Shown here piece by piece: positions 11,557-59,468 of a DNA stretch of 64,000 nt. The stretch's first letter is position 1; every line of letters starts with the position of its first letter. Both the position numbers and the translations under genes were made by a program. The stretch is from a bacterium. Its GTDB lineage: Bacteria; Desulfobacterota; Binatia; HRBIN30; CADEER01. The stretch lies in the NCBI GenBank assembly GCA_019637795.1, contig JAHBUY010000007.1, positions 150,286 through 214,285 of the forward strand, in the 5' to 3' direction. A model generated the notes under the pieces. That model had not been told where the DNA came from and did not search any database. It saw only the letters and a program-made list of their open reading frames with translations.

Positions 11557-11630
11557 GCCCCCGTAGCTCAGGTGGATAGAGCACAGGATTCCTAATCCTG
11601 GGGTCAGGCGTTCGAGGCGCCTCGGGGGTA
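11557..11630 (+). tRNA. tRNA-Arg(CCT), chimeric at attL (3' half apparently element-derived)
   Basis: Cloverleaf: acceptor GCCCCCG/CGGGGGT, anticodon stem CAGGA/TCCTG with loop TTCCTAA, T-arm AGGCG-TTCGAGG-CGCCT. Confidence 0.9.
11588..11603 (+). repeat. attL core
   Basis: ATTCCTAATCCTGGGG, identical to 23995-24010; spans the anticodon loop. Confidence 0.92.
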
Positions 11631-11670
11631 CGTAAAATCAGCAACTTGCGCCGGCGGCACCCGCGAAATT

Positions 11671-11688
11671 GTTTCCATCTGTTTCCAC
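11671..11688 (+). promoter_or_regulatory. Putative integrase arm-type sites (attL side)
   Basis: GTTTCCATCT GTTTCCAC tandem; related tandem GTTTCCATC at 23874-23893 near attR. Confidence 0.65.
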
Positions 11689-11711
11689 GGGTGCCGCCGG
11701 GTCGCAAGGTC

Positions 11712-12875
11712 TCAGCCTTTGGCCGCGTCGGCGGCGATGCCGTCGAGGCTCGCCAGCGCCGACGGATCGTGCTCGGCGCGCAGCCAGTGCGCGTAGACGC
11801 GACGGGTGACAGAACTGTCCTTGTGGCCACAGAGCGCCGCCACCTCCGTGTCCGCCCGGCCCGCCATGAGCAGCGTCGACGCGAAGGTGTGCCGCAGGGA
11901 GTGCAGCCGCACGCGCTTCACGCCGGCGGCATCGCAGGCCGGGTGCAGCGCCTTGTGGGCAAGCGTGCTGCGATGCACGGGCGTCCCCTCGCTTGACGGG
12001 AACACCCATCCGTCCGCGGTCGGCGGACATGCCAGCTTCCAGCGCCGCAGGGCGGCGACCAATTCGGGGCGGAGCGGGATGCGGCGCTTGCCGGCGCTCG
12101 TCTTGGGCGGCTTGTAGGTCGGCCCGCTGGCCGGCTCGTCGCGCCGATGGGCCCACGTGACGCTGCGCGCGATCCGCACCTCGCCCTTGGTCAAGTCGAT
12201 GTCATCCCAGATGAGCGAGGTCAGCTCCCCTACCCGCCCGCCGGTCAGCACCGCCATGTGCAGGAAGGTCTGGTACATGCCCGGCGTCGCCTGTGCGATG
12301 ACGGTGCGCGCCTGCTCGGCGGACAGCACTGTGGTCGGGTCCACCGCGCCGTCCTCCAACTCGGCTGCCAGCTCGGCGAGCGCCTTGACGGACTTCGCCG
12401 CGACCACGCGCCGGCAGCGCGGCACGACGTCCACCGGGTTGCGGTCGATGTACTCGTGGCGGACGGCATAGTTGAACACGTCGGCTGCGGTGGTCAGGAA
12501 CTTGTTGACCGTCTGCGGCGCCAGCTTCGCCGCCAGCCGATTGCGGCAGAAGGCTTCCAGGTGCCGCACGCGGATCTGGTCGATGCGGTGCTCGCCGAGG
12601 ATCGGCACAAGGTGCAGGTCGAGGTGAACTTGGTAGCCGGCGATGGTCGCCACGCTCACGCGCTCGGCCCGCTCAGCCAGCCAGTCCGCCGCCACTGCCT
12701 TGAAGGTCGGCAGTTGGTCAGGCGCTAAGAAGGTGCCCTTCTGAAGCTGGCTCGTCACCTGCGCCAGGTAGGCGTAGGCAGCCGGCTCATCGGCGCACGG
12801 CTTGATGAAGCGCCGGCCGGTGTCGTCGCGCCAGTCGGCGCACCACTTGCCGCGAACCTGTCGGACCGTTGCCAT
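11712..12875 (-). CDS. int: Tyrosine recombinase/integrase
   Basis: N-terminal arm-binding-like RGKWCADWRD; catalytic set GGRVGEL (R), PPKT (K), HSLRHT (HxxR), GHKD (H), VYAH (Y); AAGGAGG SD. Confidence 0.95.
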   Translation of the reverse strand: MATVRQVRGKWCADWRDDTGRRFIKPCADEPAAYAYLAQVTSQLQKGTFLAPDQLPTFKAVAADWLAERAERVSVATIAGYQVHLDLHLVPILGEHRIDQIRVRHLEAFCRNRLAAKLAPQTVNKFLTTAADVFNYAVRHEYIDRNPVDVVPRCRRVVAAKSVKALAELAAELEDGAVDPTTVLSAEQARTVIAQATPGMYQTFLHMAVLTGGRVGELTSLIWDDIDLTKGEVRIARSVTWAHRRDEPASGPTYKPPKTSAGKRRIPLRPELVAALRRWKLACPPTADGWVFPSSEGTPVHRSTLAHKALHPACDAAGVKRVRLHSLRHTFASTLLMAGRADTEVAALCGHKDSSVTRRVYAHWLRAEHDPSALASLDGIAADAAKG

Positions 12876-12894
12876 GCTCTCCCCTCCTTTGGTG

Positions 12895-13401
12895 TTACCG
12901 TCGCTTGAGCGACTGCATCAGCTCGTTGATGTCGCTCATGACTTCCGCGTGCGCTGGATTGAGGTCCGGGTGGTACTTCTTGGCGAGGCGGCGGTACACC
13001 TCACTGTCGACGCTGGGCGTCTGTCCGCGCCCGCCGAACATCTCGAACAACCGTTCCCGGTTCATGCGATTGGCGCGCTTCTCCATGCGGGCGAGGCGCA
13101 GGTCGAATTGTAGTTGTTTGACCTTTTCGCGGGCGGCGTCGCGCGCGCCCGCGATGGTCTCGACTCGGCGATGCAGAGCACGGATCTCGTCCAGGCGCCG
13201 CTCGAGCTGCGCCCGGAGGGACGCCAGCTCTGCCGCGACGCGCTCCTCGCGGTCGAGAAACTGCGTCAACCACGCCGGCATGGCGAGTACGCCCCGTTCC
13301 CATCGAGCTACCGTATTGGCGGCGACGCCTAGCTCCGCCGCAAGGGCAACCTGGGTTAACGCGCGGCGATGGCGATACTCTCGAAGGGCAGACGGCGTCA
13401 T
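12895..13401 (-). CDS. XRE HTH regulator fused to coiled coil and C-terminal J-domain-like segment
   Basis: LREYRHRRALTQVALAAELGVAANTVARWERG (XRE); C-terminus YRRLAKKYHPDLNP...EVMSDINE (helix II-HPD-helix III). Confidence 0.8.
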   Translation of the reverse strand: MTPSALREYRHRRALTQVALAAELGVAANTVARWERGVLAMPAWLTQFLDREERVAAELASLRAQLERRLDEIRALHRRVETIAGARDAAREKVKQLQFDLRLARMEKRANRMNRERLFEMFGGRGQTPSVDSEVYRRLAKKYHPDLNPAHAEVMSDINELMQSLKRR

Positions 13402-13454
13402 ACGATGGTCGGCTATACCATACGTATGGCGGCGCCGTCTATACCTATCGTATG
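13399..13454. promoter_or_regulatory. AT-richer operator-like cluster upstream of the XRE gene
   Basis: Perfect palindrome CCATACGTATGG (13418-13429), flanking inverted CATACGAT/ATCGTATG, direct repeat CTATACC x2. Confidence 0.55.
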
Positions 13455-13736
13455 CGTGGTGCTGAGCCGGTACACCGTCACCGCCCCCAGCTCCGCCCCG
13501 CAGAGCGCGCAGCCCGCGTCGAGGTCGCCGGGTAGCGGCGCCCCCGGCCGCTCCTGCATGTAGCGGCAGCGCGGCTGCGAGCAGGTGACGCGCGTCCACA
13601 GACTCGCTGCGGCGCAGCGATCCGGCGCAGCCATTGCCGGCCGGGCCGGCGGGTGCGATGCGCCCGCCATGGACTGGACGTATCTGGCGATGGGCGCGGG
13701 CATGATCCTGCTCATGCTGCTGCTGACCTCGCTCAT
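13413..13736 (-). CDS. Hypothetical protein with Cys pairs (possible Zn ribbon)
   Basis: Starts at an ATGA overlap with the upstream ORF; C....C and CALC motifs; competes with an antisense peptide ORF. Confidence 0.4.
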   Translation of the reverse strand: MSEVSSSMSRIMPAPIARYVQSMAGASHPPARPAMAAPDRCAAASLWTRVTCSQPRCRYMQERPGAPLPGDLDAGCALCGAELGAVTVYRLSTTHTIGIDGAAIRMV

Positions 13737-13743
13737 CGACTAG
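13669..13743 (+). CDS. 24-aa hydrophobic peptide (possible type I toxin-like)
   Basis: MDWTYLAMGAGMILLMLLLTSLID*, a single TM-length helix; no clear SD. Confidence 0.35.
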   Translation: MDWTYLAMGAGMILLMLLLTSLID

Positions 13744-13867
13744 CCCACCACCGCACCCGACACCGCGGGCACCGCCCCGGCACCTCCCGCGGCGCGTAGA
13801 GCAGCACCAGGCCGCAGGCGCACGTCACGCGGACGCCGCCAGGGACGAGACGGACGGTGGCCGTCAT
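13733..13867 (-). CDS. 44-aa Zn-ribbon-like protein
   Basis: MTATVRLVPGGVRVTCACGLVLLYAPREVPGRCPRCRVRWWASR; ATGA overlaps at both ends. Confidence 0.55.
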   Translation of the reverse strand: MTATVRLVPGGVRVTCACGLVLLYAPREVPGRCPRCRVRWWASR

Positions 13868-13980
13868 GGCTGCCGGCCCCGGAGGGGCGGACGCCGAGTA
13901 GCCTGCATCACCGGCCGATCACGCGCGACGGCCGTGAGCCCACGCAGGCACCGCCGCGCAACCGCCTCCCGCATCATCAC
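13864..13980 (-). CDS. Small basic hypothetical protein (~38 aa)
   Basis: GTGA overlap with the upstream stop and ATGA overlap with the downstream start. Confidence 0.4.
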   Translation of the reverse strand: MMMREAVARRCLRGLTAVARDRPVMQATRRPPLRGRQP

Positions 13981-14882
13981 GCCGCCGGCACCGCCGCCGT
14001 AGGCTCCGGCTGCGGCGCGCGCTCCAGCTCCTCGCGCGCCCGCACGGCGGCCTCGCGCCGGCGCTGCGCGCGACGCTCCAGCCGCTCCTGCGCGTGGCGG
14101 ATGCCGCTGCCCGGCCCCTCGGCCTCCAGCGCCGGCCCGCTCGGCTTCTCGGCGGTGGTCACGGCGCCGACGTCGTCGACGTCGCCGGTCGCCATCTGGC
14201 CATAGACCTGGCGGATGGTCTCGGCGTCGGCGGCGATGGCGTCGAGCACCTCGAGCACCTCCGCCTGGTCGGCCGGCAGCGGCGTGGCCGTGATCGCCTC
14301 GTGGACGCGCCGACGCACGGGTGCGTACGCCTTGCCGGCGCGGCCGTCGAGCTCGTCGGCCAGCACGCCAAGCAGCCACAGGTTGCGGTCGGCCGCGGCC
14401 TGCTCGACGAGGTGCGTAAGCGTCCGCGCGCTCGCCCGCGACACGCGCTGCAAGGCGGTGAACTGCGTCAGCGTGTTCGCCAGCTCGGCCGCCTGCTGGC
14501 GCTGCTCATGGTGCTGCCGCGCCGCATCGACCTGGAAGTCGGCGAGCCCGTCAACCAACTCGTGCCGGTTGAACGGCTTGACCGCCGGGACCGGGCGAGC
14601 GCGGAGCGCCGCCAGGTACGGGTCGGACAGCGCGGCCCGCTCGGCCTGCAGCGCCTGCGCCCGACTGAGCGCGGCGTCCGCCAGCGGCCGCGCCCGCCTC
14701 ACGGCGTCGCGGCGCGCCTGCGCCTTGCGCCCGGCGCGGTAGTCCGCCTGGTAGGCCGCGACGATGTCGGGGGCATCCATCGCGGCCCGCTCGATCTGCA
14801 ACGCATCCCGCGCGGCGATCATGGCGGTGCGCGTCGTGGCGATCTCGGCCGCGGCCTGCTGGAGTGCTCGGCGATCGATCAT
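13977..14882 (-). CDS. All-helical hypothetical protein (~301 aa)
   Basis: Ala/Arg/Gln-rich helices; ATGA overlap with the upstream ORF fixes the start. Confidence 0.75.
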   Translation of the reverse strand: MIDRRALQQAAAEIATTRTAMIAARDALQIERAAMDAPDIVAAYQADYRAGRKAQARRDAVRRARPLADAALSRAQALQAERAALSDPYLAALRARPVPAVKPFNRHELVDGLADFQVDAARQHHEQRQQAAELANTLTQFTALQRVSRASARTLTHLVEQAAADRNLWLLGVLADELDGRAGKAYAPVRRRVHEAITATPLPADQAEVLEVLDAIAADAETIRQVYGQMATGDVDDVGAVTTAEKPSGPALEAEGPGSGIRHAQERLERRAQRRREAAVRAREELERAPQPEPTAAVPAA

Positions 14883-15115
14883 CGGGCACCCCACTTCCCC
14901 GCCGCACTGCCGCGGGGGCCGAGCCGGCCGTCGACCACGTCGACGGCGCCGCGCCCCGGCGGCGGCGGACTCACGCGCGTCTGCGCGGCGACGGCATCGG
15001 TGCGCTGCGCCCGCGGCCGCACAAGCGCGGCGGCCTCAGCCGGCGTGAAGCCCGGCGATCGCCGCGCCCCACTGCGACGCGCGGCGGCGATGGCGTTGGT
15101 AATCGTGTTCTTCAT
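14879..15115 (-). CDS. Hypothetical protein (78 aa)
   Basis: GGAGG SD then MKNTITNAIAAARR... Confidence 0.6.
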   Translation of the reverse strand: MKNTITNAIAAARRSGARRSPGFTPAEAAALVRPRAQRTDAVAAQTRVSPPPPGRGAVDVVDGRLGPRGSAAGKWGAR

Positions 15116-15173
15116 CTCGAATCCTCCGGTAGTGGCTCGCGTCTCGGCGCCCGCGAGCGATGGCGCATGAAGG

Positions 15174-16604
15174 TCAGCCCCAGAGCACGCGGGAGATACT
15201 GCCGGTGGCGCGGCCACCGTGCGCGATGGCGAGCGCCACCACGTTGGCGACGTCGTCATGGCCGCCCCGCGGATGGTCGACGGAATCGCGGCCGGTGCGT
15301 GACGTGGTGCGCCGCTGGAGCAAACTGAACTGCCGCATCATCCGGTCGGCAGTCACCGAGCGCGCCGGGTCCGGCAACGAGACCCGCCCACCGACCAGCC
15401 ACGGCAACGCGAGTACGTATGCCTCCGAGCGCGTGTGCAGCGTCGGCATCACGCCGAGCCCGACGCGACGCAGCGCATCAACGAGGAACTCTGATGCGTA
15501 CCGGTCCGACCACACGACGCCGACGCCATACGGCCGCAGGAAGTCGCGCAGGCGCTCGACCGCCGCCGCCACCTGAAACGGGGGGCGAGTCTCGAGCAGG
15601 TCGTCGACCACGATCAGCGGCGCCCCATGGCGCGTCTCGCGATGGTAGACGCAGGCCGTGAACGAATCGCCCGCCTGGGTGCCGGACGCGGCGTCGATGG
15701 CCGCGGCGTAGGCGTGCCCCATCGGCGGCCGGCGCACCCGGTCCTGCTCGACGCAGCCCTCGAGCTCGGTCCAGCCAATCAGCCCCTCGATGTCGGCCCG
15801 GAACTCCGCATCCCACTCCGCCCGCGCCGCCGCGGGATCATCGGCGTGCGCCTCGTCGATCACCGTCTGCGCGATCGTCGGGTTCATGCGGCGGGTCGGC
15901 GCCTGCCACGTCAGCACCGGCGAGCCGTCGACGCCGTGGTGGGCGCGATACCAGTCCCAGAGCACCCCACGCCGCGCATACGGCGAGGAGATGCACAGCA
16001 GCAGCGAGCCCGGCACACGCGCCAGCCCCGGCGTCACCGCGCGCACCAGCTCGGCGTCCGGGTTGGCGGCGTCGTCCGTCGGCAAGAACGCGCACTCATC
16101 GATCACCGCGCCGGCCAGCGAATAACCGCGGGTCGAGCGGAAGGACGCGGTGTGAATCTCGATGACACAGCCCGTCGAGAGCGTCAGGCTCTCGCTGGTC
16201 TCGGCGGTGACCAGCCGGTCGAGCATGGGCGATGCGCGCAGGAGCCCGCGCACGTAGCGGAACGCCACCCGCGCCTGGCGGCGGTCGGGACACAAGAGCA
16301 TCGCCGTCGCCAGCTCCCCCGGCCCGAGCACGGGGCGGAAGTCGCGCGAGCAGGCGAGATAGACGATCAGGAACGCGGCGAGCAGCGTCTTGCCCGAGCC
16401 GCGGCCGGCGATCACCATCGCCCGCGATGCCGGCACGGTCGGCGCCGCCGAGCGCCCCGAGCAGGCGCGGTAGATCGCCAGCGCCTCGGCATCGAGCGGC
16501 AACCCGTAGATCGCCGCCACCAACGCCCGAGCAGCAGCGAACGATGGGCCGCCGAAGGTCCGCCCGCACAGGTGCGGGTCGGTCATCCAGTCGAGCGGCG
16601 TCAC
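15174..16604 (-). CDS. terL: Terminase large subunit-like protein
   Basis: Walker A VIAGRGSGKT, Walker B AVIDECAF, ISSP coupling motif, RNase H-like AAIDAASG and HDDVAN. Confidence 0.85.
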   Translation of the reverse strand: MTPLDWMTDPHLCGRTFGGPSFAAARALVAAIYGLPLDAEALAIYRACSGRSAAPTVPASRAMVIAGRGSGKTLLAAFLIVYLACSRDFRPVLGPGELATAMLLCPDRRQARVAFRYVRGLLRASPMLDRLVTAETSESLTLSTGCVIEIHTASFRSTRGYSLAGAVIDECAFLPTDDAANPDAELVRAVTPGLARVPGSLLLCISSPYARRGVLWDWYRAHHGVDGSPVLTWQAPTRRMNPTIAQTVIDEAHADDPAAARAEWDAEFRADIEGLIGWTELEGCVEQDRVRRPPMGHAYAAAIDAASGTQAGDSFTACVYHRETRHGAPLIVVDDLLETRPPFQVAAAVERLRDFLRPYGVGVVWSDRYASEFLVDALRRVGLGVMPTLHTRSEAYVLALPWLVGGRVSLPDPARSVTADRMMRQFSLLQRRTTSRTGRDSVDHPRGGHDDVANVVALAIAHGGRATGSISRVLWG

Positions 16605-16789
16605 GCGGCAGGCCTCCCGCAGGTCGGGCACCGCCACCGCTCGAGCGCCCGATCGAGCGCCCGATCGTCGTCGCGGTCGACGATCACACGGGGATGCCCA
16701 TCGACGCCGCACCACACACCAGCGCGGGCACGCCAGATGCCAGCAGCGGGCGGCACGTCCCGGCAGGGCGGCGCGTCGTGCCAGCTCAT
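16601..16789 (-). CDS. Small hypothetical protein with CPTC motif
   Basis: 62 aa; 4-nt overlaps on both sides. Confidence 0.55.
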   Translation of the reverse strand: MSWHDAPPCRDVPPAAGIWRARAGVWCGVDGHPRVIVDRDDDRALDRALERWRCPTCGRPAA

Positions 16790-17061
16790 GCGCCGTCCTC
16801 GCCAATCGGCGGCACCGGCACGGGGAACACGCCGGCGATCTCCTCGGCGCCGTCGATGTCGACGTAAACCACCGTGACGTGCGACGGCGGCGGGTCGGCG
16901 GGAATGAAGGAGTCGAGGTCGGCGTCGGCGTCGCCAGCCAGCTCGAGGGCGCGCTGCGCCGCCTCGCGCCGGGCGCGCACCTGTGCGGCGATGGCGGCGC
17001 CGAGCGCCTGCGCGGCGTGGCGGTCGGCGGCGGAGGACCAGCGGCGGTGATCGCGGGTCAT
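16786..17061 (-). CDS. Hypothetical protein (91 aa)
   Basis: 4-nt overlaps on both sides. Confidence 0.6.
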   Translation of the reverse strand: MTRDHRRWSSAADRHAAQALGAAIAAQVRARREAAQRALELAGDADADLDSFIPADPPPSHVTVVYVDIDGAEEIAGVFPVPVPPIGEDGA

Positions 17062-17495
17062 CGGATGTCCTCGCCCGCCTGCGGCGATCCTGGGGCCGGG
17101 AAGTCGCTCTGAGTGTTGGCCGCCGCGCGGTGGCGCGCGAGGGCGGCGGTGCCGGCCGCAACCAACGCGGCCCGGTGCTCCTCGCTCAGTCGCCGGCGCC
17201 GGTACGGCCGCAGGATCGCCAGCACGGCGTCGAGGTGGTCGACGTGAAAGACGACGCGCACCTCAGCGTCGCCCAGCGCCCGCTCGACGAACGGCAGCGC
17301 CCGCAGATGCACCCCGATGCGCGGCCGGTCGGTCCACGCGAACAGCCGCTCGCCGCCCTGGGCGCCGACGTAGCCATGCCGGCAGGCGATGCGAGCGAGC
17401 CAGGGGCGGTCAGCGACGGGCCAGTCGGCGGCCTGCGGCTCGAAGACGATGCGGTAGCGGCGGCTATACCGGGCGGATAGGTCGATGCAGGTCAT
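17058..17495 (-). CDS. Hypothetical phage-type protein (145 aa)
   Basis: Globular composition; 4-nt overlaps on both sides. Confidence 0.7.
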   Translation of the reverse strand: MTCIDLSARYSRRYRIVFEPQAADWPVADRPWLARIACRHGYVGAQGGERLFAWTDRPRIGVHLRALPFVERALGDAEVRVVFHVDHLDAVLAILRPYRRRRLSEEHRAALVAAGTAALARHRAAANTQSDFPAPGSPQAGEDIR

Positions 17496-18010
17496 GCGGG
17501 ATCGTCTCCTGTGGTGTCGGCGGACACCTCGGCGTCGACCACGGCCGCCTCGGCCGGCGGCGCCGCCTCGGCCGGCGCGGCAGCGGTCGTGGCGCGGTCG
17601 CGCAGGTAGGCGTCGAGCGACGGCAGGTCGGCAGCGCGGTCCGGGCGCAGGCCGAGCGCCTGCAGCATCCGCGAAAGCGACTGAACGTGCGTCACGTAGC
17701 CGCGGCGCAAGATCGGCAGCAGCTCGCCAGCCGCGTCAACCAGGCGGTCGGCCTGGAACACATGCCCCTCGATGGTCGAGCAGATGAGCGCCGCCGCGGC
17801 GCAGCGGTCGACCAGCAAGCGCTCACGCGCTGTCAGCCGGTCGTAGCCGCCGGCATCGGCGGCGAGGTCCTGGCGCAGCTCGGCGAGCGCCCGAGCAATC
17901 CAGGTCCGCTGGTCGAGACTGCCGGCGGCGAGGTGGCGGGCGAGCGAGCGGGCGCCGTGTTTCGGCGGCGTGCCGGCGCGTCGGCGCATAGGCACCGGGC
18001 GGCTAGCCAT
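17492..18010 (-). CDS. Terminase small subunit-like protein
   Basis: N-terminal KHG and C-terminal LGL.P motif typical of P27-like TerS; upstream of terL in the same operon. Confidence 0.55.
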   Translation of the reverse strand: MASRPVPMRRRAGTPPKHGARSLARHLAAGSLDQRTWIARALAELRQDLAADAGGYDRLTARERLLVDRCAAAALICSTIEGHVFQADRLVDAAGELLPILRRGYVTHVQSLSRMLQALGLRPDRAADLPSLDAYLRDRATTAAAPAEAAPPAEAAVVDAEVSADTTGDDPA

Positions 18011-18431
18011 GGCGGATCACCGCCTGAAATCCCGTACCCCTGCCCAGCGTCTCGGTGGAAACAGATGGAAACGGACCCGCGCCGTTGCTGGATTTTTCGG
18101 CGGTCGCAGGACTGCCCATCCTGTGGTCCGCCTCGAGCGCTGCGCGCACGGCGCCGCGATCGAAGCGCCAGTACTTGCCGCAGCGCCGCGCCGGCAGCCG
18201 ACCAGCACGCGCCTGCGCGCGGAACCACGTCACCGGCAAGTGGAACTCGGCGGCCAGCTCATCGGCGGTCGCGAAGGCGGTGCGCGATGGCGGCACATCG
18301 GCTGGCGCGGTCATCGCCGCGACCAACTGCACCTGCGCGCCGGCGAGGGCAGCCACGGCGGCGGCCCGATCGGTCGCGGACAGCTCGGCGCAGGCACGAT
18401 CCAGCGTCCGGCGCAGCTCCTCGAGCGTCAT
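18003..18431 (-). CDS. Excisionase-like (HTH_17/MerR-type) DNA-binding protein
   Basis: FATADELAAEFHLPVTWFRAQARAGRLPARRCGKYWRFDRGAV winged-helix Xis signature. Confidence 0.75.
   Translation of the reverse strand: MTLEELRRTLDRACAELSATDRAAAVAALAGAQVQLVAAMTAPADVPPSRTAFATADELAAEFHLPVTWFRAQARAGRLPARRCGKYWRFDRGAVRAALEADHRMGSPATAEKSSNGAGPFPSVSTETLGRGTGFQAVIRHG
18055..18072 (-). repeat. Internal inverted exact copy of the attL arm-type 18-mer
   Basis: GTGGAAACAGATGGAAAC is the reverse complement of 11671-11688. Confidence 0.85.
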
Positions 18432-18527
18432 CGGCGGCCCCGGGGCGCAATCTGTGAAGCATTGCCGGCGGCGGAGGTGCCGGTCGCGGGGGGAATCATC
18501 ATGCCCCATCCCCTACAGCCGACCCCA

Positions 18528-18668
18528 GACGGATACGGCGTATCTGTCTCGCCGGTCCGACCCAGGCTCAGACCAGGCTCACCAGGCTCACGGTCCATAT
18601 GTCTCTCGCGCGCGCGCGCGCTATGCGGGTAAACGGACGGAGAGCCTGATAAGCCTGCTTGGGCCTGG
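18528..18668. promoter_or_regulatory. Putative replication origin of the element
   Basis: CCAGGCTCA x3 (18562, 18573, 18582), a (CG)7 run at 18607-18621, three inverted degenerate copies (GAGCCTG, AAGCCTG, GGCCTGG); directly downstream of the D5 helicase gene. Confidence 0.65.
18533..18543. promoter_or_regulatory. ATAC-GGC-GTAT palindromic site, copy 1 of 4
   Basis: Identical 11-mers at 20154, 20979, 22870; here the arms extend to GACGGATAC/GTATCTGTC. Confidence 0.7.
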
Positions 18669-18687
18669 CGGTGGGTCATTTGGGCCG

Positions 18688-20100
18688 TCATTCCTGTTCT
18701 TGGGCTGCCGCTCGCAGCCGAACACCGACGCGAAACCGGACGCCACCGATCTTCTCGGCGTGGATGCCGAGCCGGTGCAGCTCGTCGCCGAAGTCGCGCT
18801 TCTTGAGCGCGTCGTGCCTCAGCTCGGCGACGTAGGCATCGAACAGCACCTTGAACGGCGTGCGTGCTCGCGGGTCGCGCTCGCAGTACTCGTCGACCCA
18901 CTGCCCGACAGCGTCCATCTCGGCGCGGTAGGCGGCGGTGGCGGCGCGGACGATCTCGGGCGGGCGCAGGCCGTCGGCGTACCAGGCGATGGCGCCGTCG
19001 ATGATCCAACGGAGGATGCCGGGCAGCTCGTCGGTGAGCGAGGCGGCGAAGTCGCGGACCAGATTGGTCTGCAGCCGCTCCTCGAGGTTGACGACGAAGG
19101 GCACCAGATGGATGCGGCGCCAGATGGCGGGGTCGGTGCCGCGGACGTCGGGCTTGTGATTCCCCGCCAGCCAGAACGTGTGCGTCGGCGCGAACTCGAA
19201 GAAGTCCTGCCGCATGTACCGCGCCTTCAACTGGTCGCCGCCGGTGAGCCACTTGACCTTCGTTTCGGCCAGCCCGCGACCCTGCTCGGTCTCGATGGCC
19301 GAGACCAGGCGGGCGCCCATCAAGTCGGCGATCTCGGTCGGGTGCGCGTCGTGCTTGGTCGCCATCAACAGCGACGGGGCGGCGGTGCGGGCGTAGTCGC
19401 CGAGTGCGGCATGGAGCAGCGACAGGAAGGTCGACTTGCCGTTTGCGCCGCTGCCCCACAAGAACAGCAAGCACTGCTCGCGGACCGACCCCGTGGCGCT
19501 GTAGCCGGCGGCGCGCTGCAGGAAGTCGATCAGCGCCGTGTTGTCGAAGGTCAGCGTCAAGAACTCCATGAACCGTGGACAGGTCGCGTCCGGGTCATAG
19601 GCGACTGGCGTGCGGCGGCTGATGAGGTCCTCGCGGCGGTGCGGGCGCAGCTCGCCAGTGCGGAGGTCGACGGTGCCGTTCTCGCAGGTCAGCAACCACG
19701 GGTCGCGATCGAAGGCGTCGGGCGGGAGCGCCACGCGCCGATCGGCAGCGGCGAGCGCCAACATCGCCTCCAGCCGGTTGCGCTTGCCGGACGCAAGGAA
19801 GTGTTGCGCCAGGATGGCCCGCTCCTCGGGCGAGCCAGCGGCGCCCACCTCGGCCCACCACTGCGCGATGGTGGTGGTCGCCAGCGCCATCGTCGCGGCC
19901 GTAGCATCGGGCTGCCAGCGTCCCTCCGTCCAGACGTGCCAGCCGGCGCCGCGGTGCGCGTAGCGCAGCGTGTCGGCGTGCGCGTCGATGAACGCCTCGG
20001 CGTTGGCGACGTCGGTGGTGCGCCACTTGGCGTCGCGGATGGCAGCGGGGTTGGGTAGATCGCTCGCGCCGAAGAGGTCTACGATCTTCCCGCGGCTCAT
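18688..20100 (-). CDS. P4/D5-family SF3 helicase (phage/plasmid primase family C-terminal part)
   Basis: D5_N region (TDVANAEAF...W), Walker A GSGANGKST, KWLTGGD, GNHKP, WRRIHLVPF. Confidence 0.9.
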   Translation of the reverse strand: MSRGKIVDLFGASDLPNPAAIRDAKWRTTDVANAEAFIDAHADTLRYAHRGAGWHVWTEGRWQPDATAATMALATTTIAQWWAEVGAAGSPEERAILAQHFLASGKRNRLEAMLALAAADRRVALPPDAFDRDPWLLTCENGTVDLRTGELRPHRREDLISRRTPVAYDPDATCPRFMEFLTLTFDNTALIDFLQRAAGYSATGSVREQCLLFLWGSGANGKSTFLSLLHAALGDYARTAAPSLLMATKHDAHPTEIADLMGARLVSAIETEQGRGLAETKVKWLTGGDQLKARYMRQDFFEFAPTHTFWLAGNHKPDVRGTDPAIWRRIHLVPFVVNLEERLQTNLVRDFAASLTDELPGILRWIIDGAIAWYADGLRPPEIVRAATAAYRAEMDAVGQWVDEYCERDPRARTPFKVLFDAYVAELRHDALKKRDFGDELHRLGIHAEKIGGVRFRVGVRLRAAAQEQE

Positions 20101-21008
20101 CGGGGCGCATCCTGGGCTGTCATGCGGCGCACCGTACCGGCCGTGCGTGCCGGATACGGCGTATGTGTCCGCTGCCCTGACCCGGCATCGTAGGATTCGA
20201 CGCTGGCCAAGATGGCGTTGACTTCGCGTTTCCCCAGCGGCTTGTCGCAGCGTTCCGTGTTCGCGGTGTGGACGGACGCGCAGAGCAGCTTCCACTCCAC
20301 CTTCCGCGCCCGCATCGACGCCGCGTAGCGGAACAGCGTGTCGTTGCGCTCGCCCTTGCCGATCGTGTCCGGCAGCCGGAACGGGTCGCCGTGCTCGCCG
20401 CGGAGCTCGTCGAGGTGGCGAATCGCCGCGACCCAGAGCGGCGGCAGCTCGGGCAACGGGAGGTCGGCGGCCGAGTAGCCGATCAAGTAGGCGTAGCCGC
20501 GGCAGGGCGGCGGAAAGACCAGGCTGTTGTCGCCGCGGATGTCGACACCGGCACCCAGCTTGGCGACCGAATTGCGAATCCCGCCGGGCGCCTGGAAGTA
20601 TCGGTGCTCGCCGTGGTGCGGGGTCGTGACCGTTGGCGCATCCGGTAGCGGGCCGTAGCGCTGTTCCAGGTCGTGGAGTGTGTCGCAGCCGTCGACGCCG
20701 TGTTTGCGGTCGGCGTCGAGGATCAGCAGGCGATCGGTGGTGAGGAGCGCGCAGTCGGCATCGGGAAACCGCTGCCACCAGCGGTCTAGTTGGTCGAGGT
20801 CATCGCTCGCCCGCTGGTGGCCAACACCAGTCGGCCCGATGCAGGTCCAGCGTGTGCCCGGCCGCATCGGCACCACGCGCGTGTGCCAGTGCGCGATGTA
20901 CCACTGTGCGGCGCGCAGGCCGCGCGGCGTCTGTTGTGGCGGCGTCATGAGCGGCGGTGTACGTGGCGCCGCGCCCACATACGGCGTATCCGTCCCCGGC
21001 GTCATCAT
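20097..21008 (-). CDS. Bifunctional DNA primase/polymerase (Prim-Pol + PriCT)
   Basis: LLILDAD, VTTP..G.H.YF, GVDIRG, PriCT-like GERNDTLFRYA. Confidence 0.85.
   Translation of the reverse strand: MMTPGTDTPYVGAAPRTPPLMTPPQQTPRGLRAAQWYIAHWHTRVVPMRPGTRWTCIGPTGVGHQRASDDLDQLDRWWQRFPDADCALLTTDRLLILDADRKHGVDGCDTLHDLEQRYGPLPDAPTVTTPHHGEHRYFQAPGGIRNSVAKLGAGVDIRGDNSLVFPPPCRGYAYLIGYSAADLPLPELPPLWVAAIRHLDELRGEHGDPFRLPDTIGKGERNDTLFRYAASMRARKVEWKLLCASVHTANTERCDKPLGKREVNAILASVESYDAGSGQRTHTPYPARTAGTVRRMTAQDAPR
20154..20164. promoter_or_regulatory. ATAC-GGC-GTAT site, copy 2
   Basis: About 55 nt upstream of the D5 helicase start. Confidence 0.65.
20979..20989. promoter_or_regulatory. ATAC-GGC-GTAT site, copy 3
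   Basis: At the 5' end of the Prim-Pol gene. Confidence 0.65.
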
Positions 21009-22645
21009 CCGGCCACCGTTCGTGCTGCTGTCGACTGCCAGCCGCGGCCGGCGACGATGCGGCGCACCTGTCGGCGGGTGAGCGCATCGGCCGCGGCGCC
21101 CTTGCTCATGCCCGGCACGTAGCCCGCACGTAGCGCCGCGCGTTGCCCATCGCTGGCAGGTTGGCTGCGCCAGCGCGCATCCGCCCGGGCGATGCGCCAG
21201 CGTGCCGGGTCGGCGCGCAGCAGCTCCTCCGCGACGCCCTGTGCCAGCTCGAGCGACGGCACGGCGCGATGCACGGTTTCGACGGTCCGCGTCTCTCGTG
21301 ATTGCCACAGCACGTCGACCGTCCCGTCCGCCTCGGTCGACAGGATCACCACGCCATCGCCCATCGACACGGCGTAACTGCCATCGACCGTCAGCCAGGC
21401 GATGCGACTGTCGCGCGGCGCGAAGAGCGCCACCTCGCGCGCGGTCAGTGCCGCGGCCCGTCCCTGCTCCGCTGCCTCCCGTGCTGCGGCCTGGGCCGCG
21501 TCTGCGGCGAGCACGCCATCGGCCAGCGCCGCCGCCGGCGTCTCGAACAGTACGGCGGCCGTCATCAGGTCATGGGTGCCTGTCGCGCCGACGCAATCGA
21601 GTACCAGGCAGTCCGCCTTTGCCGGGTGCTTCCGCGCGCCGCGCCCGAGCATCTGCTGATAGAGCACGGGGCTGCGCGTCGGACGGGCGATGCAGACGCA
21701 ATCCACGCGCGGAAGGTCGACGCCTTCCGTGGCGACGCCGACGTTGACCAGCACGGGCAGCTCGCCGGCGCGCACCGCCGCGAACAGTGCGGCCCGCTCG
21801 TCGGTAGGGGTGGCGCCCGTAACCAGCGCGGCGTGCAGTCCGCGCCCCCGGCACGCATCGACGGTTGCCTCGGCCACCGCGATCGTCGGCGCGAACACCA
21901 GCGAGACGCGGCCCGATGCGTGCTCGGCCAGTGCGGTGGCGATGTGTACCGGCGCGTCGGCGCCGCTCAGCGCCTCGCCGAGCGCCCCTTGCGCGTAGTC
22001 GCCATCGACGCGCGGTAGGCTGGCGAGGTCGACCGCCAGCGCAATCTGCAGCCCGCGGAAGTCGCACAGGTAGCCCTGGCGGATCAGCTCGATCAGCGAG
22101 GTCTGATACACGATCTCCTGATACGTCGGCGCCAGGCCGCGCCCGTCGGCGCGTGTCAGCGTGGCGGACACGCCGAGGAGCTGCGGCGCGTCGGCCCCAT
22201 CGTCGAGCGCCCCGACGCCGGCGAGCACCGTCTGGTAGCTCTGCGCGGCGCTGTGGTGCGCTTCGTCCACCACGACGAGCGAAAAACGGCCGGCGGCGCC
22301 GATCTGCTCGAGCCGGCGCGGCTGCCGCAGCGTCGGGACGCTGCCGACGATCACGGCGGCGTCAGGCGTGTTGTGGTCGGCGCGGACGATGCCGATGGCG
22401 CGGGCATCGCCGAGCACATAGCCGATCGTCGCGGCGGCCTGGTCGATCAGCTCCTCGCGGTGCGCGAGCACCAGCGCCCGGTCGCCGCGTCGGACATGCT
22501 CGGCGACCAAATGACCAAACGTGACCGTCTTGCCGCCGCCGGTCGGGATTTGGATTGCCGCACGGCGGATACCGCGGAGCGCCGCGGCGCCGATCGCCGC
22601 GAGCGCATCCCGTTGGTAGGGGCGCAGCGCGATTCCCGCGCTCAT
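21005..22645 (-). CDS. SF2 DEAD/DEAH-box helicase
   Basis: LRPYQ, PTGGGKT, DEAHH, SAT, EGVDLP, QMLGRGAR. Confidence 0.92.
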   Translation of the reverse strand: MSAGIALRPYQRDALAAIGAAALRGIRRAAIQIPTGGGKTVTFGHLVAEHVRRGDRALVLAHREELIDQAAATIGYVLGDARAIGIVRADHNTPDAAVIVGSVPTLRQPRRLEQIGAAGRFSLVVVDEAHHSAAQSYQTVLAGVGALDDGADAPQLLGVSATLTRADGRGLAPTYQEIVYQTSLIELIRQGYLCDFRGLQIALAVDLASLPRVDGDYAQGALGEALSGADAPVHIATALAEHASGRVSLVFAPTIAVAEATVDACRGRGLHAALVTGATPTDERAALFAAVRAGELPVLVNVGVATEGVDLPRVDCVCIARPTRSPVLYQQMLGRGARKHPAKADCLVLDCVGATGTHDLMTAAVLFETPAAALADGVLAADAAQAAAREAAEQGRAAALTAREVALFAPRDSRIAWLTVDGSYAVSMGDGVVILSTEADGTVDVLWQSRETRTVETVHRAVPSLELAQGVAEELLRADPARWRIARADARWRSQPASDGQRAALRAGYVPGMSKGAAADALTRRQVRRIVAGRGWQSTAARTVAG

Positions 22646-22848
22646 GTGGCGTCGTTCCGTCGCTGATGTCGCGGCGGCTCGAGGAGCTGATGCGCCTCGA
22701 CAAAGAACTGTTCGAGGTCCTTCCGTAGGGCGCGCTCCGCCCGCTCGCGGGCGACGGAGCGCGACCAGGCGCGCAGGAGCGCGCGGAGGGCCGGGTTGCG
22801 GGACCGACGGAGCGCCGATGGCAGTGCGGGTGTCGTCATGCGCCGCAT
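22642..22848 (-). CDS. Small basic hypothetical protein (68 aa)
   Basis: ATGA overlap with the helicase start. Confidence 0.55.
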   Translation of the reverse strand: MRRMTTPALPSALRRSRNPALRALLRAWSRSVARERAERALRKDLEQFFVEAHQLLEPPRHQRRNDAT

Positions 22849-22869
22849 GGTAGGCGGCGCAGATGACTG

Positions 22870-22880
22870 ATACGGCGTAT
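22870..22880. promoter_or_regulatory. ATAC-GGC-GTAT site, copy 4
   Basis: Intergenic, upstream of the replication operon. Confidence 0.7.
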
Positions 22881-22890
22881 TCGTCGCGCG

Positions 22891-23721
22891 CTACTTCTGC
22901 GCGACCTTCAGGGCCTTCCGCACGGACGCAAATTGCAGGATCACGCGCCGCGCACCGCCGCGCGCGGCCTCCGTGTATTCCACGGTGATGGTCCGCGCCT
23001 CGCGGTCCACGTCGACTTCGGTAGCGAGCGGTAGGAGGTTGCCGTCCATCAGGGCCAACGCATCCTCGACGGTGTCCGGGTCGCCGAGCACCTTTAGGAA
23101 CCCCTTCCATGTCTGCGGTTGGGTCGCCGCCCACACGCGACGAAAGAGCACTGTGTGTGGCTGCTTGGGTTTCCCTTTGCCCGCACGGCCGGCGGCGCTA
23201 TTTTGAGTCCGTATTTTCGTGCGGTCTGCCACCACTTTCCGCCGCGCCTCCGCGTCGCCGACGATGTAGAGCGCTTGCTCGCCGAGCCACCGGTCGATGA
23301 TTGCGCGCTCCGATTGGTCGTCGGCCGTCATGGTGAGCAGCCCGTGCATCATGTCGCCGGACCAGTCGGGGTGCCCGCCCGTGGCGTGCAGGCGTTTCCA
23401 GGCCGCTCTATACGTGCGGTCGAGTTCCTTCTGTCGCTCGCGCACGTCGGTATCGCTCTCGCCGGGACGCCGGGCGCGCTCAATGGCCGCCTCAGCCGCG
23501 ATTACCGCGCAGAGTGCTACCGCCGTAACCCGCCGTCGCTGCGCCGTCGCTCTATACGTCTCGGCGTCTCGCTGGCGCGGTGTGCCGTCGCGGTTCCAGG
23601 TCGACTCCGCCATCAGGCGCCGTCGCACCTCGTCGAGGATGACGGCGCGGAACGGATCCTGTCGCGATTCCTTCGCCGGCGGCGTTGCCCCCGGCTTCCG
23701 CGTCGTGCGTGTCGCCATCAT
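22891..23721 (-). CDS. Hypothetical protein (276 aa), first gene of the element
   Basis: Long ORF with protein-like composition; basic C-terminal region. Confidence 0.7.
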   Translation of the reverse strand: MMATRTTRKPGATPPAKESRQDPFRAVILDEVRRRLMAESTWNRDGTPRQRDAETYRATAQRRRVTAVALCAVIAAEAAIERARRPGESDTDVRERQKELDRTYRAAWKRLHATGGHPDWSGDMMHGLLTMTADDQSERAIIDRWLGEQALYIVGDAEARRKVVADRTKIRTQNSAAGRAGKGKPKQPHTVLFRRVWAATQPQTWKGFLKVLGDPDTVEDALALMDGNLLPLATEVDVDREARTITVEYTEAARGGARRVILQFASVRKALKVAQK

Positions 23722-23873
23722 CCACCACCCGTTCGTGGGACCCGATCTACTGTTGCACCGCCGCCGGCGGGGCGCTCGGGTCTGCGCCGTTCGGTGGCCG
23801 ACCTAGCCGGCGGCGGTATGGCTATGGCTACGCTACCAACTCGATTCCCGGCGAAGAAAGAGGCGCACGGCGT

Positions 23874-23893
23874 GTTTCCATCGTGTTTCCATC
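23874..23893 (+). promoter_or_regulatory. Putative integrase arm-type sites (attR side)
   Basis: GTTTCCATC-GT-GTTTCCATC, about 100 bp inside the attR core. Confidence 0.65.
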
Positions 23894-23994
23894 ACGGTGC
23901 GTCCACACCGCACGGTGCGTCAGCCGGTCCGCGAAAACGCTGAGGCTTCCGACGTATCGGACGCACGGCGCGGCGAGCCTCATGACTTGACCGC

Positions 23995-24037
23995 ATTCCT
24001 AATCCTGGGGCCGTGCGTTCGAATCGCGCCGGGGGCA
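23995..24037 (+). repeat. attR: core plus displaced 3' half of tRNA-Arg(CCT)
   Basis: Core followed by CC-GTGCG-TTCGAAT-CGCGC-CGGGGGC-A; CGGGGGC pairs perfectly with the 5' GCCCCCG at 11557. Confidence 0.92.
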
Positions 24038-24106
24038 TTCACCTTCCAGTTGCGCACCAATCGCTGGTGCCCGATCCGCGGCCCCGGGGCGTTCCGCGGC
24101 AGTGGC

Positions 24107-56353: not shown

Positions 56354-57736
56354 TCACTGCTTGGCCGCGAGCAACGTGGTGACCAGGGTGTCGCCGACCA
56401 TGGCGCCATCCAGGGTTGGGAAGGCGGTGGCGAGCGCGCTGCGCAGCGGCGCGTTGGGGTTGGTGATGATCGCGTCGCAATCGACGCCGGAGCCGCTCAC
56501 CTTGGTGACGCACTGGGTGGTGCCGCCGCAGGTCGCGCCGTCCTTGATCGCGTCGCCGGCGGTGTTGTTGACGTCGTAGATCGCCACTTCCGCCGAACCC
56601 GAGGTGGTCGGCGCGATGTTCGCCGTGCCCTTCTCCAGATCGTCGTCGGTGCACGGCAGGCAGTCGGGTCCGTAGTCCGCGTAGAGACACTTGCCGTTGC
56701 GCATCGGCTTGCTCGTCGTGCACGCGGCGCCGTCCTGCAGCAGGCCGATCGAGGAGCTGTTGACGAGGAGCACGGCGCCGCGCGCCGCCTGACCGCCGGA
56801 GAAGGTCACGATGCGCGGGCTGTTGCACGCGGCGGGAGTCACCGCCGGCGGGAAGTGCGTGTTGTTCTCGGTCGAGCACAGGGCACCACTACCCTCGCGG
56901 CAGGCCGAAGAGTGGATGTAGCGGCCGGCGGTGCTGGTGTCGTCGCATTCCGGATCGTCGGGAAGCCCCGAGGCGGAACCGCCGTTGCCAGGGCTTCCGG
57001 GCGTGGTGTTGTGATCCTGTTCGACCTTGAAGTTGATGTCGGTGAGTCCCTCGCTGCCGCAGCCGATCACGCCAACGCCGGAGATGCCGGGGCCGAAATC
57101 GTCGACCGGCACGCCGCGCACGCAGGCGCAGGCGATGCCGAACACGGGCACTGGATTGAACTGCACGTCGGCGCCCTTGATGACCACCGGAATCTCACCG
57201 GCCTTGAAGATCTGGGCGCCGTCCTTGCCGATCACCGGCACGTCGCGATAGGCGCCGACGGTCAACACCTGGGTGCCGCTCAGTTGCAGTGGGATGGCCA
57301 GGGTTCGGACCTGCGCTGTTGCCTTGGCGCGGGCGGGATCCAGCTCGGTCACGCGGCGGGTTTCCAGCGTGCAGTTGGCGGCGCAGCCGTCGCCGCCCTG
57401 GTTGTTGCCGTCATCGCACGTCTCGCCAGCGACGTTCATCTGGCCGTCGCCGCACACCTCGTTGCCGCCGATCGGGCTGCAGCCGGCGAGCGCGGCGTTC
57501 ACCGCCGCGATCAGCTCGTTGATGGCGACGGAGCCGTCGCCGTTGACGTCGCAGGGCGCGCAGGAGGGCACCGTCGCGCTGCCGAGGGCGATGTTGACGC
57601 AGAGCACGAGCTCGTTGATGGCGACGTCGCCGCCGCCATCGCAGTCGCCGGCGCAGCGCTCCTCGGCACCCGCGCCGCTGACTCCGCCCATCATGAGAAG
57701 CGCCGCCGTCAGGGCGGCGAGTCGGGGATGACGCAT
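56354..57736 (-). CDS. Secreted protein with N-terminal dockerin-like module, Cys-rich CGDG repeat and unknown C-terminal domain (paralog 1)
   Basis: Signal peptide; CAGDCDGGGDVAINELV.CVNIALG; CGDG...GETCDDGN...DGCAANC. Confidence 0.85.
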   Translation of the reverse strand: MRHPRLAALTAALLMMGGVSGAGAEERCAGDCDGGGDVAINELVLCVNIALGSATVPSCAPCDVNGDGSVAINELIAAVNAALAGCSPIGGNEVCGDGQMNVAGETCDDGNNQGGDGCAANCTLETRRVTELDPARAKATAQVRTLAIPLQLSGTQVLTVGAYRDVPVIGKDGAQIFKAGEIPVVIKGADVQFNPVPVFGIACACVRGVPVDDFGPGISGVGVIGCGSEGLTDINFKVEQDHNTTPGSPGNGGSASGLPDDPECDDTSTAGRYIHSSACREGSGALCSTENNTHFPPAVTPAACNSPRIVTFSGGQAARGAVLLVNSSSIGLLQDGAACTTSKPMRNGKCLYADYGPDCLPCTDDDLEKGTANIAPTTSGSAEVAIYDVNNTAGDAIKDGATCGGTTQCVTKVSGSGVDCDAIITNPNAPLRSALATAFPTLDGAMVGDTLVTTLLAAKQ

Positions 57737-59193: not shown

Positions 59194-59228
59194 GAACGCT
59201 CCCTTCGTTTTGCGCCCGAGGTAGTTGC

Positions 59229-59283
59229 CGTAATCGACCGGATTACGTTCATTGAAATACGTTTGAAAATTTTGTGTCAAGGG
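59229..59283 (-). promoter_or_regulatory. AT-rich promoter region with palindromic operator candidate
   Basis: TTGACA on the - strand (59275-59280); CGTAATC-GACCG-GATTACG palindrome at 59229-59247. Confidence 0.55.
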
Positions 59284-59468
59284 TTTCACGCTGCGGCGCT
59301 CCAGCGAAGCGGATCGACATCGAATTCGCGGACCGTCCGCGCCCCGGCCCCGGCCATGGGCGTTCGGATGTGGGTGGAGCCGTCTGCCTCGACTTGCTCG
59401 CGCATTCGGCGTGTGGTACCCGACTGCGATTGCTGGCGGCTCGGAGCCAGCAATCCCCATACACCTGA

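Follow-up and report, generated by a model that had tools for sequence, protein, structure and literature searches.

A predicted XRE-family regulator ending in a minimal J-domain-like hairpin adjoins the integrase of a satellite-like island in tRNA-Arg

The gene next to the tyrosine integrase of an island inserted in a tRNA-Arg encodes a protein, termed here XRE-J, in which an XRE-type helix-turn-helix (HTH) is joined through a long heptad-repeat helix to a C-terminal tail that, judged by sequence comparison, is homologous to a J-domain and does not merely carry a His-Pro-Asp (HPD) tripeptide by chance. The island lies in the window, i.e. the whole stretch of 64,000 nucleotides analyzed here (contig JAHBUY010000007.1, positions 150,286 to 214,285), which derives from a bacterium of activated sludge or wastewater, uncultured and with 70% GC; positions are those of the window ( Table 1 ). 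The methylmalonyl-CoA mutase of this host shares 88-90% identity with that of unclassified 'Deltaproteobacteria' MAGs and 76-81% with that of Candidatus Binatia. By its function-defining motifs XRE-J appears to be like a class C J-domain protein (JDP), although its J-domain is minimal or truncated and not canonical. This architecture suggests that elements encoding XRE-J proteins may link their on/off switch to the chaperone system of the host.

Evidence for J-domain homology comes from several comparisons. In a phmmer search of all PDB sequences the top matches were J-domains, with the leading alignments starting at residues 106-119. A profile built from 28 C-terminal segments of the family retrieved 59 PDB matches (E up to 1), of which 57 were J-domains, the best at E 3.3e-7; they include the J-domain of DnaJ crystallized with DnaK (5nro_B, E 5.1e-6). 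When aligned by hhalign with residues 1-76 of E. coli DnaJ, the probability reached 96.6% (E 5.6e-10), and the aligned part, DnaJ 20-62, corresponds to helix II, the HPD loop and helix III. The Pfam DnaJ model (PF00226) matched XRE-J at E 7.7e-5 over residues 135-166, equivalent to profile positions 20-54 of 63, and matched 26 of the 28 family segments when these were searched singly. Its threshold is reached by some of the relatives, namely the protein of locus L194 (28.6 bits) and three proteins with a precomputed PF00226 assignment (P0017, P0029, P0159). The first-pass annotation, made from the sequence letters, had already read the tail as helix II, HPD loop and helix III, and the PDB profile, Pfam and hhalign matches all support that assignment.

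Conservation follows the same elements. The first-pass annotation had named loss of the HPD among homologues as grounds for giving up its proposal; the tripeptide is retained in 39 of 42 members that share only about 30-40% identity, and in alignment A2 the H and D are invariant and the P is at least 90% conserved. It is lost in three members, one of which reads HSD (P0021) while the other two are degenerate (P0110, P0160). Together with the basic helix II, the HPD forms the best conserved region outside the HTH. The family consensus of the tail is V-Y-[KR]-R-L-A-[RK]-K-Y-H-P-D-[RHL]-[NH]-P-x-x-A-E-V-M-x-D-[IL]-N-E-L-[WYM]-Q-A, in which helix II is near-identical to the YKRLAMKY of DnaJ and the run Y-[KR]-R-L-A-x-K-Y-HPD-x-N-P agrees with helix II of DnaJ nearly residue for residue. 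Mean net charge of helix II is +2.7 over 13 residues, compared with +4 for the E. coli DnaJ stretch. The linker between the HTH and the hairpin is free to vary in sequence, and its length in the homologues lies anywhere between about 25 and 110 aa.

Predicted structures are consistent with a J hairpin, and alone they are not decisive. In a separate AlphaFold2 model of the last 65 residues, computed with 28 homologues, the predicted local distance difference test (pLDDT) score exceeds 90 over both hairpin helices. Five of the six PDB matches of this model in Foldseek were J-domains, over 29-33 columns at 0.9-1.4 A and with E about 1; a Foldseek search of BFVD gave a similar, weak J-domain likeness. 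The full-length model matched XRE HTH proteins only (HigA2, ImmR, Aca2, MqsA, SinR, DdrO, P22 c2), since the J hairpin makes up too little of the chain. In the AlphaFold/Foldseek comparison proposed at first pass, a J-domain likeness thus appeared, weakly, with the C-terminal model and not with the complete protein.

Helices I and IV constitute the core of a J-domain. Helix IV is absent from all 28 aligned members, each of which ends 20-27 residues past the HPD, leaving no room for it. Helix I, which had been described as apparently absent, is indeed not conserved across the family, but in XRE-J it is better called vestigial, since phmmer aligned RERLFEMFGG (residues 113-122) with helix I of DNAJC5 and DNAJA1; this motif (LFEMFGG) makes up the terminal part of the long helix and occurs in only a subset of the family. 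The tail therefore lacks the four-helix fold in which helices I and IV pack on the II/III hairpin, and the score of this protein remains below the Pfam threshold; for these two reasons the term minimal is used. In a J-domain, contact with Hsp70 is made by helices II and III together with the HPD (PMC7289447). As a separate observation, viral proteins in IMG/VR were encountered whose J-domain stops right after helix III (L096 9923-10426, L099 9899-10438, L102 9686-10327), with a sequence of the type HPDLGGDEEIMKQIN, located in L102 at the extreme C-terminus; J-domains devoid of helix IV seem to be common in phages.

The remainder of XRE-J conforms to a DNA-binding regulator. Two Pfam models, HTH_31 (PF13560, 30.0 bits against a cut-off of 27) and HTH_3 (PF01381, 27.7 against 23), match the same N-terminal residues, bearing out the XRE HTH recognized at first pass. 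In the AlphaFold2 model of the full-length protein (four homologues, mean pLDDT 84.5) a three-helix HTH module with pLDDT >90 is followed by a single unbroken helix (also >90), a poorly ordered segment at 123-130 and the two hairpin helices, with the HPD in the loop. The long helix keeps one continuous heptad register, 65% of its a and d positions being L, I, V, M or F compared with a background of 29%, and is most likely a coiled coil of about 11 heptads forming a parallel dimer. The earlier reading of a coiled coil therefore holds, whereas its length is about 80 aa (43-122) and not the approximately 60 aa first proposed. As also anticipated, the Pfam scan of the 168-aa protein detected no S24 peptidase domain (none at E up to 1), nor any other domain, and the usual RecA input is therefore missing; scans with PHROGs and NCBIfam gave nothing beyond generic HTH matches.

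The 168-aa form was taken as the gene because its N-terminus, MTPSALREYRHRRALTQ, coincides with the N-termini of the homologues in the alignment. A longer form starting at a GTG at 13599 (234 aa) was discarded, its extension being unconserved and the homologues beginning at the HTH. Public gene calls start the protein at Met41 instead (window position 13281 and not 13401; P0001, L081, L082), yielding a product of 128 aa from which the HTH is lost. Automatic annotation hides the architecture, because the HTH is clipped and most relatives have no precomputed DnaJ match.

Relatives were collected with a profile run against 1.84 billion representative proteins and with a second, word-indexed search. 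The family comprises at least 42 distinct members (sequence clusters, window protein included) with the layout HTH, linker and J tail. All derive from metagenomes, mostly as singleton clusters, and are annotated at most as XRE-family regulators. Every relative with a readable context resides in a phage, satellite or plasmid-like element, and a short family member is encoded in the IMG/VR viral contig L083. Proximity to integrases, proposed as a check at first pass, recurs: the integrase adjoins XRE-J in the window, and a recombinase is found within about 7 kb in four of six other contexts, including a serine recombinase at 2.9 kb in the P0032 contig.

In one subclade (L103-L106) three genes keep their arrangement: that of a 192-aa HTH protein, terminase-small-subunit-like by eye and without a Pfam match, is divergent to XRE-J, and behind XRE-J comes the gene of a GP88 (PF17338) protein; integrases and DnaB or D5/PriCT primases are located no more than a few kb away. 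In L107, XRE-J stands alone on the plus strand between a RepA_C initiator, a GpA terminase and capsid/cement genes, and in L108 it is surrounded by capsid, integrase, AlpA and PriCT genes. In other elements XRE-J is either alone on its strand or diverges from a neighboring block, between replication and packaging genes, which is where a lysogeny regulator is usually found.

No relative was found in 50,697 isolate phage genomes or in 72,556 plasmids, where the sole match was an unrelated N-terminal J protein of a Haemophilus plasmid. A pattern scan of 185,579 representative genomes produced at least 600 matching stretches; among the best 80 of the 163 loci confirmed by tblastn, which were inspected, no fusion was recognized, these being ordinary DnaJ or short XRE proteins. 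In a metagenome scan, two further loci (L191 506-1261, L194 3089-3664) were seen to encode the same coiled-coil and HPD tail on a different N-terminal domain, a zinc ribbon with an HGPYWY motif and a weak match to DUF6788. In L194, which is adjoined by a ParA-like gene, the tail KLYRKLAAKYHPDHNPATAEVMKDLNELWQALK scores above the DnaJ cut-off, as noted. Since it is also fused to this DUF6788-like zinc ribbon, the tail is a portable module on mobile-element proteins. The profile search itself was dominated by proteins of another kind, 500-1000 aa in length and with 6-12 tandem XRE HTHs containing the motif ..NTVxxWExG.. (P0005, P0006, P0007 and many others), which is an unusual poly-HTH architecture.

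The island carrying XRE-J spans 12.4 kb (11588-24010) between two copies of the att core, and every one of its genes is on the minus strand. Between the XRE-J stop and the integrase ATG are 19 nt, with the ribosome-binding site AAGGAGG ahead of the ATG; the two genes are therefore probably co-transcribed as one operon. Upstream of XRE-J are two tandem open reading frames (ORFs) encoding CxxC zinc ribbons (13413-13736 and 13733-13867, minus strand) without family assignment, the first ending 11 nt from the XRE-J ATG and, by its codon-position GC, being probably a real gene. Besides these two small zinc-ribbon ORFs, the island encodes a 305-aa protein of no assigned family, a large terminase subunit (TerL; PHROG E 4e-20), an HTH_17/excisionase-like protein, a D5-type primase-helicase (PHROG E 7e-119), a Prim-Pol, an SF2 helicase, a 276-aa protein, likewise unassigned, and small ORFs of the same kind. 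No gene for a capsid, portal or tail was recognized, five ORFs remaining unannotated, and for this reason the island looks like a phage satellite encoding TerL or a reduced prophage.

Logan contigs of public runs break at the tRNA, the alternative path being the tRNA 3' half of other community members. An excision junction was considered here and set aside, because this path is not the attR flank of the window; it gives no evidence either way. Runs X3 and X4 show an increase in read depth, from about 25 to about 400, across 11560-11603 in the anticodon region of the tRNA, together with branching of the contigs; since other community members share this tRNA segment, the increase and the branching mimic an excision junction without being one. 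Away from the island, two adjacent paralogues of about 1.5 kb (56354-57736 and 57826-59460, minus strand; repeat families D1-D3) share 72-76% DNA identity, and the one that was scanned had no Pfam match.

Operator-like repeats occur at the positions expected for control by a single HTH protein. Eight inverted repeats of the form ATAC-N(0-7)-GTAT are present in the window, and seven of these are inside the island. Three are packed in 45 bp upstream of the XRE-J ATG, beside a TATAGC -10-like hexamer. The other four are copies of the palindrome ATACGGCGTAT, for which 0.35 sites would be expected by chance, and lie in four near-identical 51-nt blocks (family D6; 18498-18548, 20119-20169, 20944-20994 and 22835-22885) each located ahead of the start codon of one of four consecutive island genes. 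Each block consists of the palindrome, 16-17 nt, a TAC-type -10-like hexamer and 7-9 nt before the ATG, a spacing that would place the palindrome over the -35 region and points to transcripts with no leader or almost none. The recurrence of the block suggests one common regulator of the four genes, and the overall pattern, though circumstantial, is that expected if one dimeric HTH protein controls its own and the early promoters.

Table 1. Location of the features discussed, in window coordinates except where another locus is named.
Feature	Position	Strand	Details and basis
XRE-J regulator gene	12895..13401	minus	168 aa + stop; ATG 13399-13401, stop 12895-12897; ORF list
XRE-type helix-turn-helix	13282..13386	minus	residues 6-40; Pfam
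Heptad-repeat long helix, putative dimerizing coiled coil	13036..13275	minus	residues 43-122
Minimal J-domain hairpin	12901..13011	minus	helix II 131-142, HPD loop, helix III 151-167; protein end
HPD tripeptide	12964..12972	minus	residues 144-146; sequence; plus-strand letters GTCCGGGTG
Three ATAC-N(0-5)-GTAT inverted repeats	13415..13453		ATACCATACGTAT, ATACGTAT, ATACCTATCGTAT; putative promoter/auto-operator
Tyrosine integrase	11712..12875	minus	Pfam Phage_integrase 1.4e-23
tRNA-Arg(CCT), integration target	11557..11631	plus	ARAGORN
attL core, 16 bp	11588-11603	plus	ATTCCTAATCCTGGGG; inside tRNA; repeat search
attR	23995..24040	plus	second 16-bp core 23995-24010, then diverged tRNA 3' half
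Palindrome ATACGGCGTAT	18533..18543		upstream of HTH_17/excisionase-like gene
Palindrome ATACGGCGTAT	20154..20164		upstream of D5-type primase-helicase gene
Palindrome ATACGGCGTAT	20979..20989		upstream of Prim-Pol gene
Palindrome ATACGGCGTAT	22870..22880		upstream of SF2 helicase gene
Three-gene unit of one subclade	L103 9388-11702; L104 1166-3480; L105 9419-11483; L106 9398-11459		192-aa HTH protein, XRE-J, GP88 protein

Taken together, and on the strength of sequence features, we tentatively regard XRE-J as a possible, if short of probable, DNA-binding master regulator of the satellite-like island whose activity is coupled to host DnaK. A regulatory role is supported by the location of the gene immediately upstream of int. 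The coiled coil would dimerize the protein so that two HTHs read inverted repeats, and the dimer would bind the ATAC..GTAT repeats at its own promoter and at the promoters of the excisionase-like, primase, Prim-Pol and helicase genes, so that the island is silenced but expression of the regulator-integrase operon continues. Action as a repressor is the more likely, given the overlap between palindromes and -35 regions. Basic helix II and the HPD loop may dock on ATP-bound DnaK and trigger hydrolysis, as in class C JDPs, whereupon DnaK would clamp the regulator itself or a neighbor, the candidate sites being segment 123-130 and the end of the coiled coil. Repression would then depend on available DnaK, acting either as co-repressor or as inactivator. 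If DnaK were drawn off by unfolded proteins, as upon heat, proteotoxic stress or a burst of structural proteins from a helper phage, the regulator would change state and the island would be induced independently of RecA. Chaperone-titration control of this sort is known for sigma-32 and HspR. The phage protein Rki acts through DnaK (PMC3486835). That XRE-J amounts to a RecA-independent induction switch reading DnaK availability, derepressed by stress or helper load, and to a portable 'Hsp70-sensor' module, the latter because the tail is also found on a second DNA-binding domain (DUF6788-like), is more doubtful.

Several observations weigh against this regulator reading. On the J-domain side, XRE-J scores 23.2 bits, under the Pfam DnaJ cut-off of 27.8, and similarity by structure only is weak at the Foldseek value given above; with helix IV absent and helix I unconserved, the hairpin may not fold alone as a J-domain, and the three HPD-less members keep the helices, which argues for an HPD-independent role of the hairpin as well. 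On the regulatory side, the three repeats upstream of XRE-J overlap the 3' end of ORF 13413-13736, the palindromes could instead be bound by the 168-aa HTH_17 protein (18003-18509), and a palindrome whose centre lies near -36 could be the site of an activator no less than of a repressor. With all island genes on one strand there is no classical divergent switch, and runs labelled as metatranscriptomes show even coverage of island and flanks and are uninformative on regulation.

A different role, which we consider unlikely, is that the HTH anchors the J hairpin at island DNA and DnaK is loaded onto a neighboring replication, intasome or terminase complex, so that remodelling of a nucleoprotein complex, and not the regulator's own repression, would be the point. 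The J-homology evidence applies equally to this possibility, and palindromes precede every replication gene of the island. The L107 homologue is back to back with the RepA_C initiator, other loci adjoin DnaB, D5 and PriCT primases or the gene resembling a small terminase subunit, and the sister architecture is beside ParA. Parallels exist in the action of DnaJ/DnaK at the lambda origin (O/P) and with P1 RepA, and in the J-domain of polyomavirus (SV40) large T. Also, class C JDPs typically localize Hsp70 to one site or to a single client (PMC13254874). However, the neighbors differ between elements, with no shared client except the GP88/192-aa trio of one subclade, and the position beside int and the repeats at its own promoter fit a regulator better.

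Quite unlikely, in our estimation, is that the tail is a J-derived relic without DnaK contact, serving as a helical cap, an oligomerization surface or a docking site, for instance for an antirepressor, in the way that CbpM binds the J-domain face of CbpA. The missing or vestigial core helices I and IV, the retention of helices in the three members without HPD and a structural likeness confined to a 30-residue hairpin would all agree with such a relic. Selection for Hsp70 contact, on the other hand, predicts precisely the finding that the HPD and basic helix II are the best conserved regions outside the HTH, and no structural role is known for the solvent-exposed HPD. Substitutions in the HPD abolish Hsp70 stimulation (PMC13254874), which also counts against a relic, as does the existence of phage J proteins that end right after helix III (those of L096, L099 and L102).

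It is highly improbable that XRE-J is an MqsA/HigA-like antitoxin or a generic XRE regulator resembling a J-domain by chance: HigA2 and MqsA antitoxins are among the top Foldseek HTH matches, NCBIfam gives a weak match to the MqsA-family HTH and two zinc-ribbon ORFs lie just upstream, but no toxin family was detected among the neighbors (integrase and zinc-ribbon ORFs), the homologues start at the HTH without a zinc ribbon, and profile E-values of 3e-7 to 6e-10, with matches almost exclusively to J-domains, rule out a chance resemblance. A frameshifted MqsA-like fusion with ORF 13413-13736 was also considered and rejected, the two being in different frames and the homologues having no zinc ribbon.

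Should DnaK be engaged as the regulator reading proposes, XRE-J would be the first transcriptional regulator of a mobile element that is itself a JDP, and a lysogeny or satellite-induction decision would be tied to the host chaperone network and not to the SOS response. A piece of about 37 residues, helix II-HPD-helix III, could then work as a J-domain when placed on a coiled coil, and would offer a small module by which Hsp70 could be tethered at DNA sites of choice. This would also matter for the detection of JDPs, given that Pfam misses the window protein and precomputed Pfam missed most relatives. If DnaK is not engaged, the family would still represent an unrecognized and conserved architecture among regulators of environmental phages, satellites and plasmids. 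Both the fusion and its conservation would surprise specialists in chaperones and in phage regulation.

Among regulators, XRE-J shares with CI/LexA-type and ImmR-type repressors an N-terminal XRE HTH, a place in an integration/regulatory module and a C-terminal part presumed to receive the signal; it differs from them in having no S24 domain and no ImmA-type protease partner that could be found, the input being instead the coiled coil and J hairpin. The proposed logic, in which the activity of a regulator reports free DnaK, is that of HspR with DnaK and of sigma-32 with DnaK/DnaJ. HspR is, however, a MerR-type protein without a J-domain, and both it and sigma-32 use the DnaJ of the cell or direct DnaK binding, whereas XRE-J has a built-in J element; the likeness is a functional analogy and does not imply membership. 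CbpA of E. coli likewise is bacterial and combines DNA binding with a J-domain, and is matched by the family profile (3ucs and 2kqx, E 1.3e-5), yet it is a class B JDP with a full N-terminal J-domain, DnaJ-type C-terminal domains, non-specific DNA binding and no HTH. Polyomavirus large T is, like the proposed XRE-J regulator, a viral sequence-specific DNA-binding regulator with its own J-domain that recruits host Hsp70 (PMC13254874), and T and t antigens are among the weak profile and fold matches. It differs in being eukaryotic and a much larger multifunctional protein, with an origin-binding domain and a helicase and with an N-terminal J-domain complete through helix III/IV, and the two share no common descent beyond the J-domain.

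No fusion of an XRE or other HTH with a J-domain was encountered in the literature searched, which left the J Mol Biol 2020 JDP census outside, and an earlier mention is possible. The closest counterparts by motif are the class C (type III) JDPs, including Rki of phage RB43 (PMC3486835), which likewise combine the HPD and a basic helix II with an unrelated targeting domain. As in phage JDPs, the module in XRE-J lies away from the N-terminus, belongs to a gene of a mobile element and would have host DnaK as its target. In the phage JDP census, as far as it is summarized in a 2026 review (PMC13254874), no further domain is known for 48 of 49 unique phage class C JDPs, and Rki, which acts on sigma-32, has no DNA-binding domain (PMC3486835). 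XRE-J, unlike the class C proteins, keeps only the J-domain's helix II, HPD and helix III, and its partner is an XRE HTH with a coiled coil.

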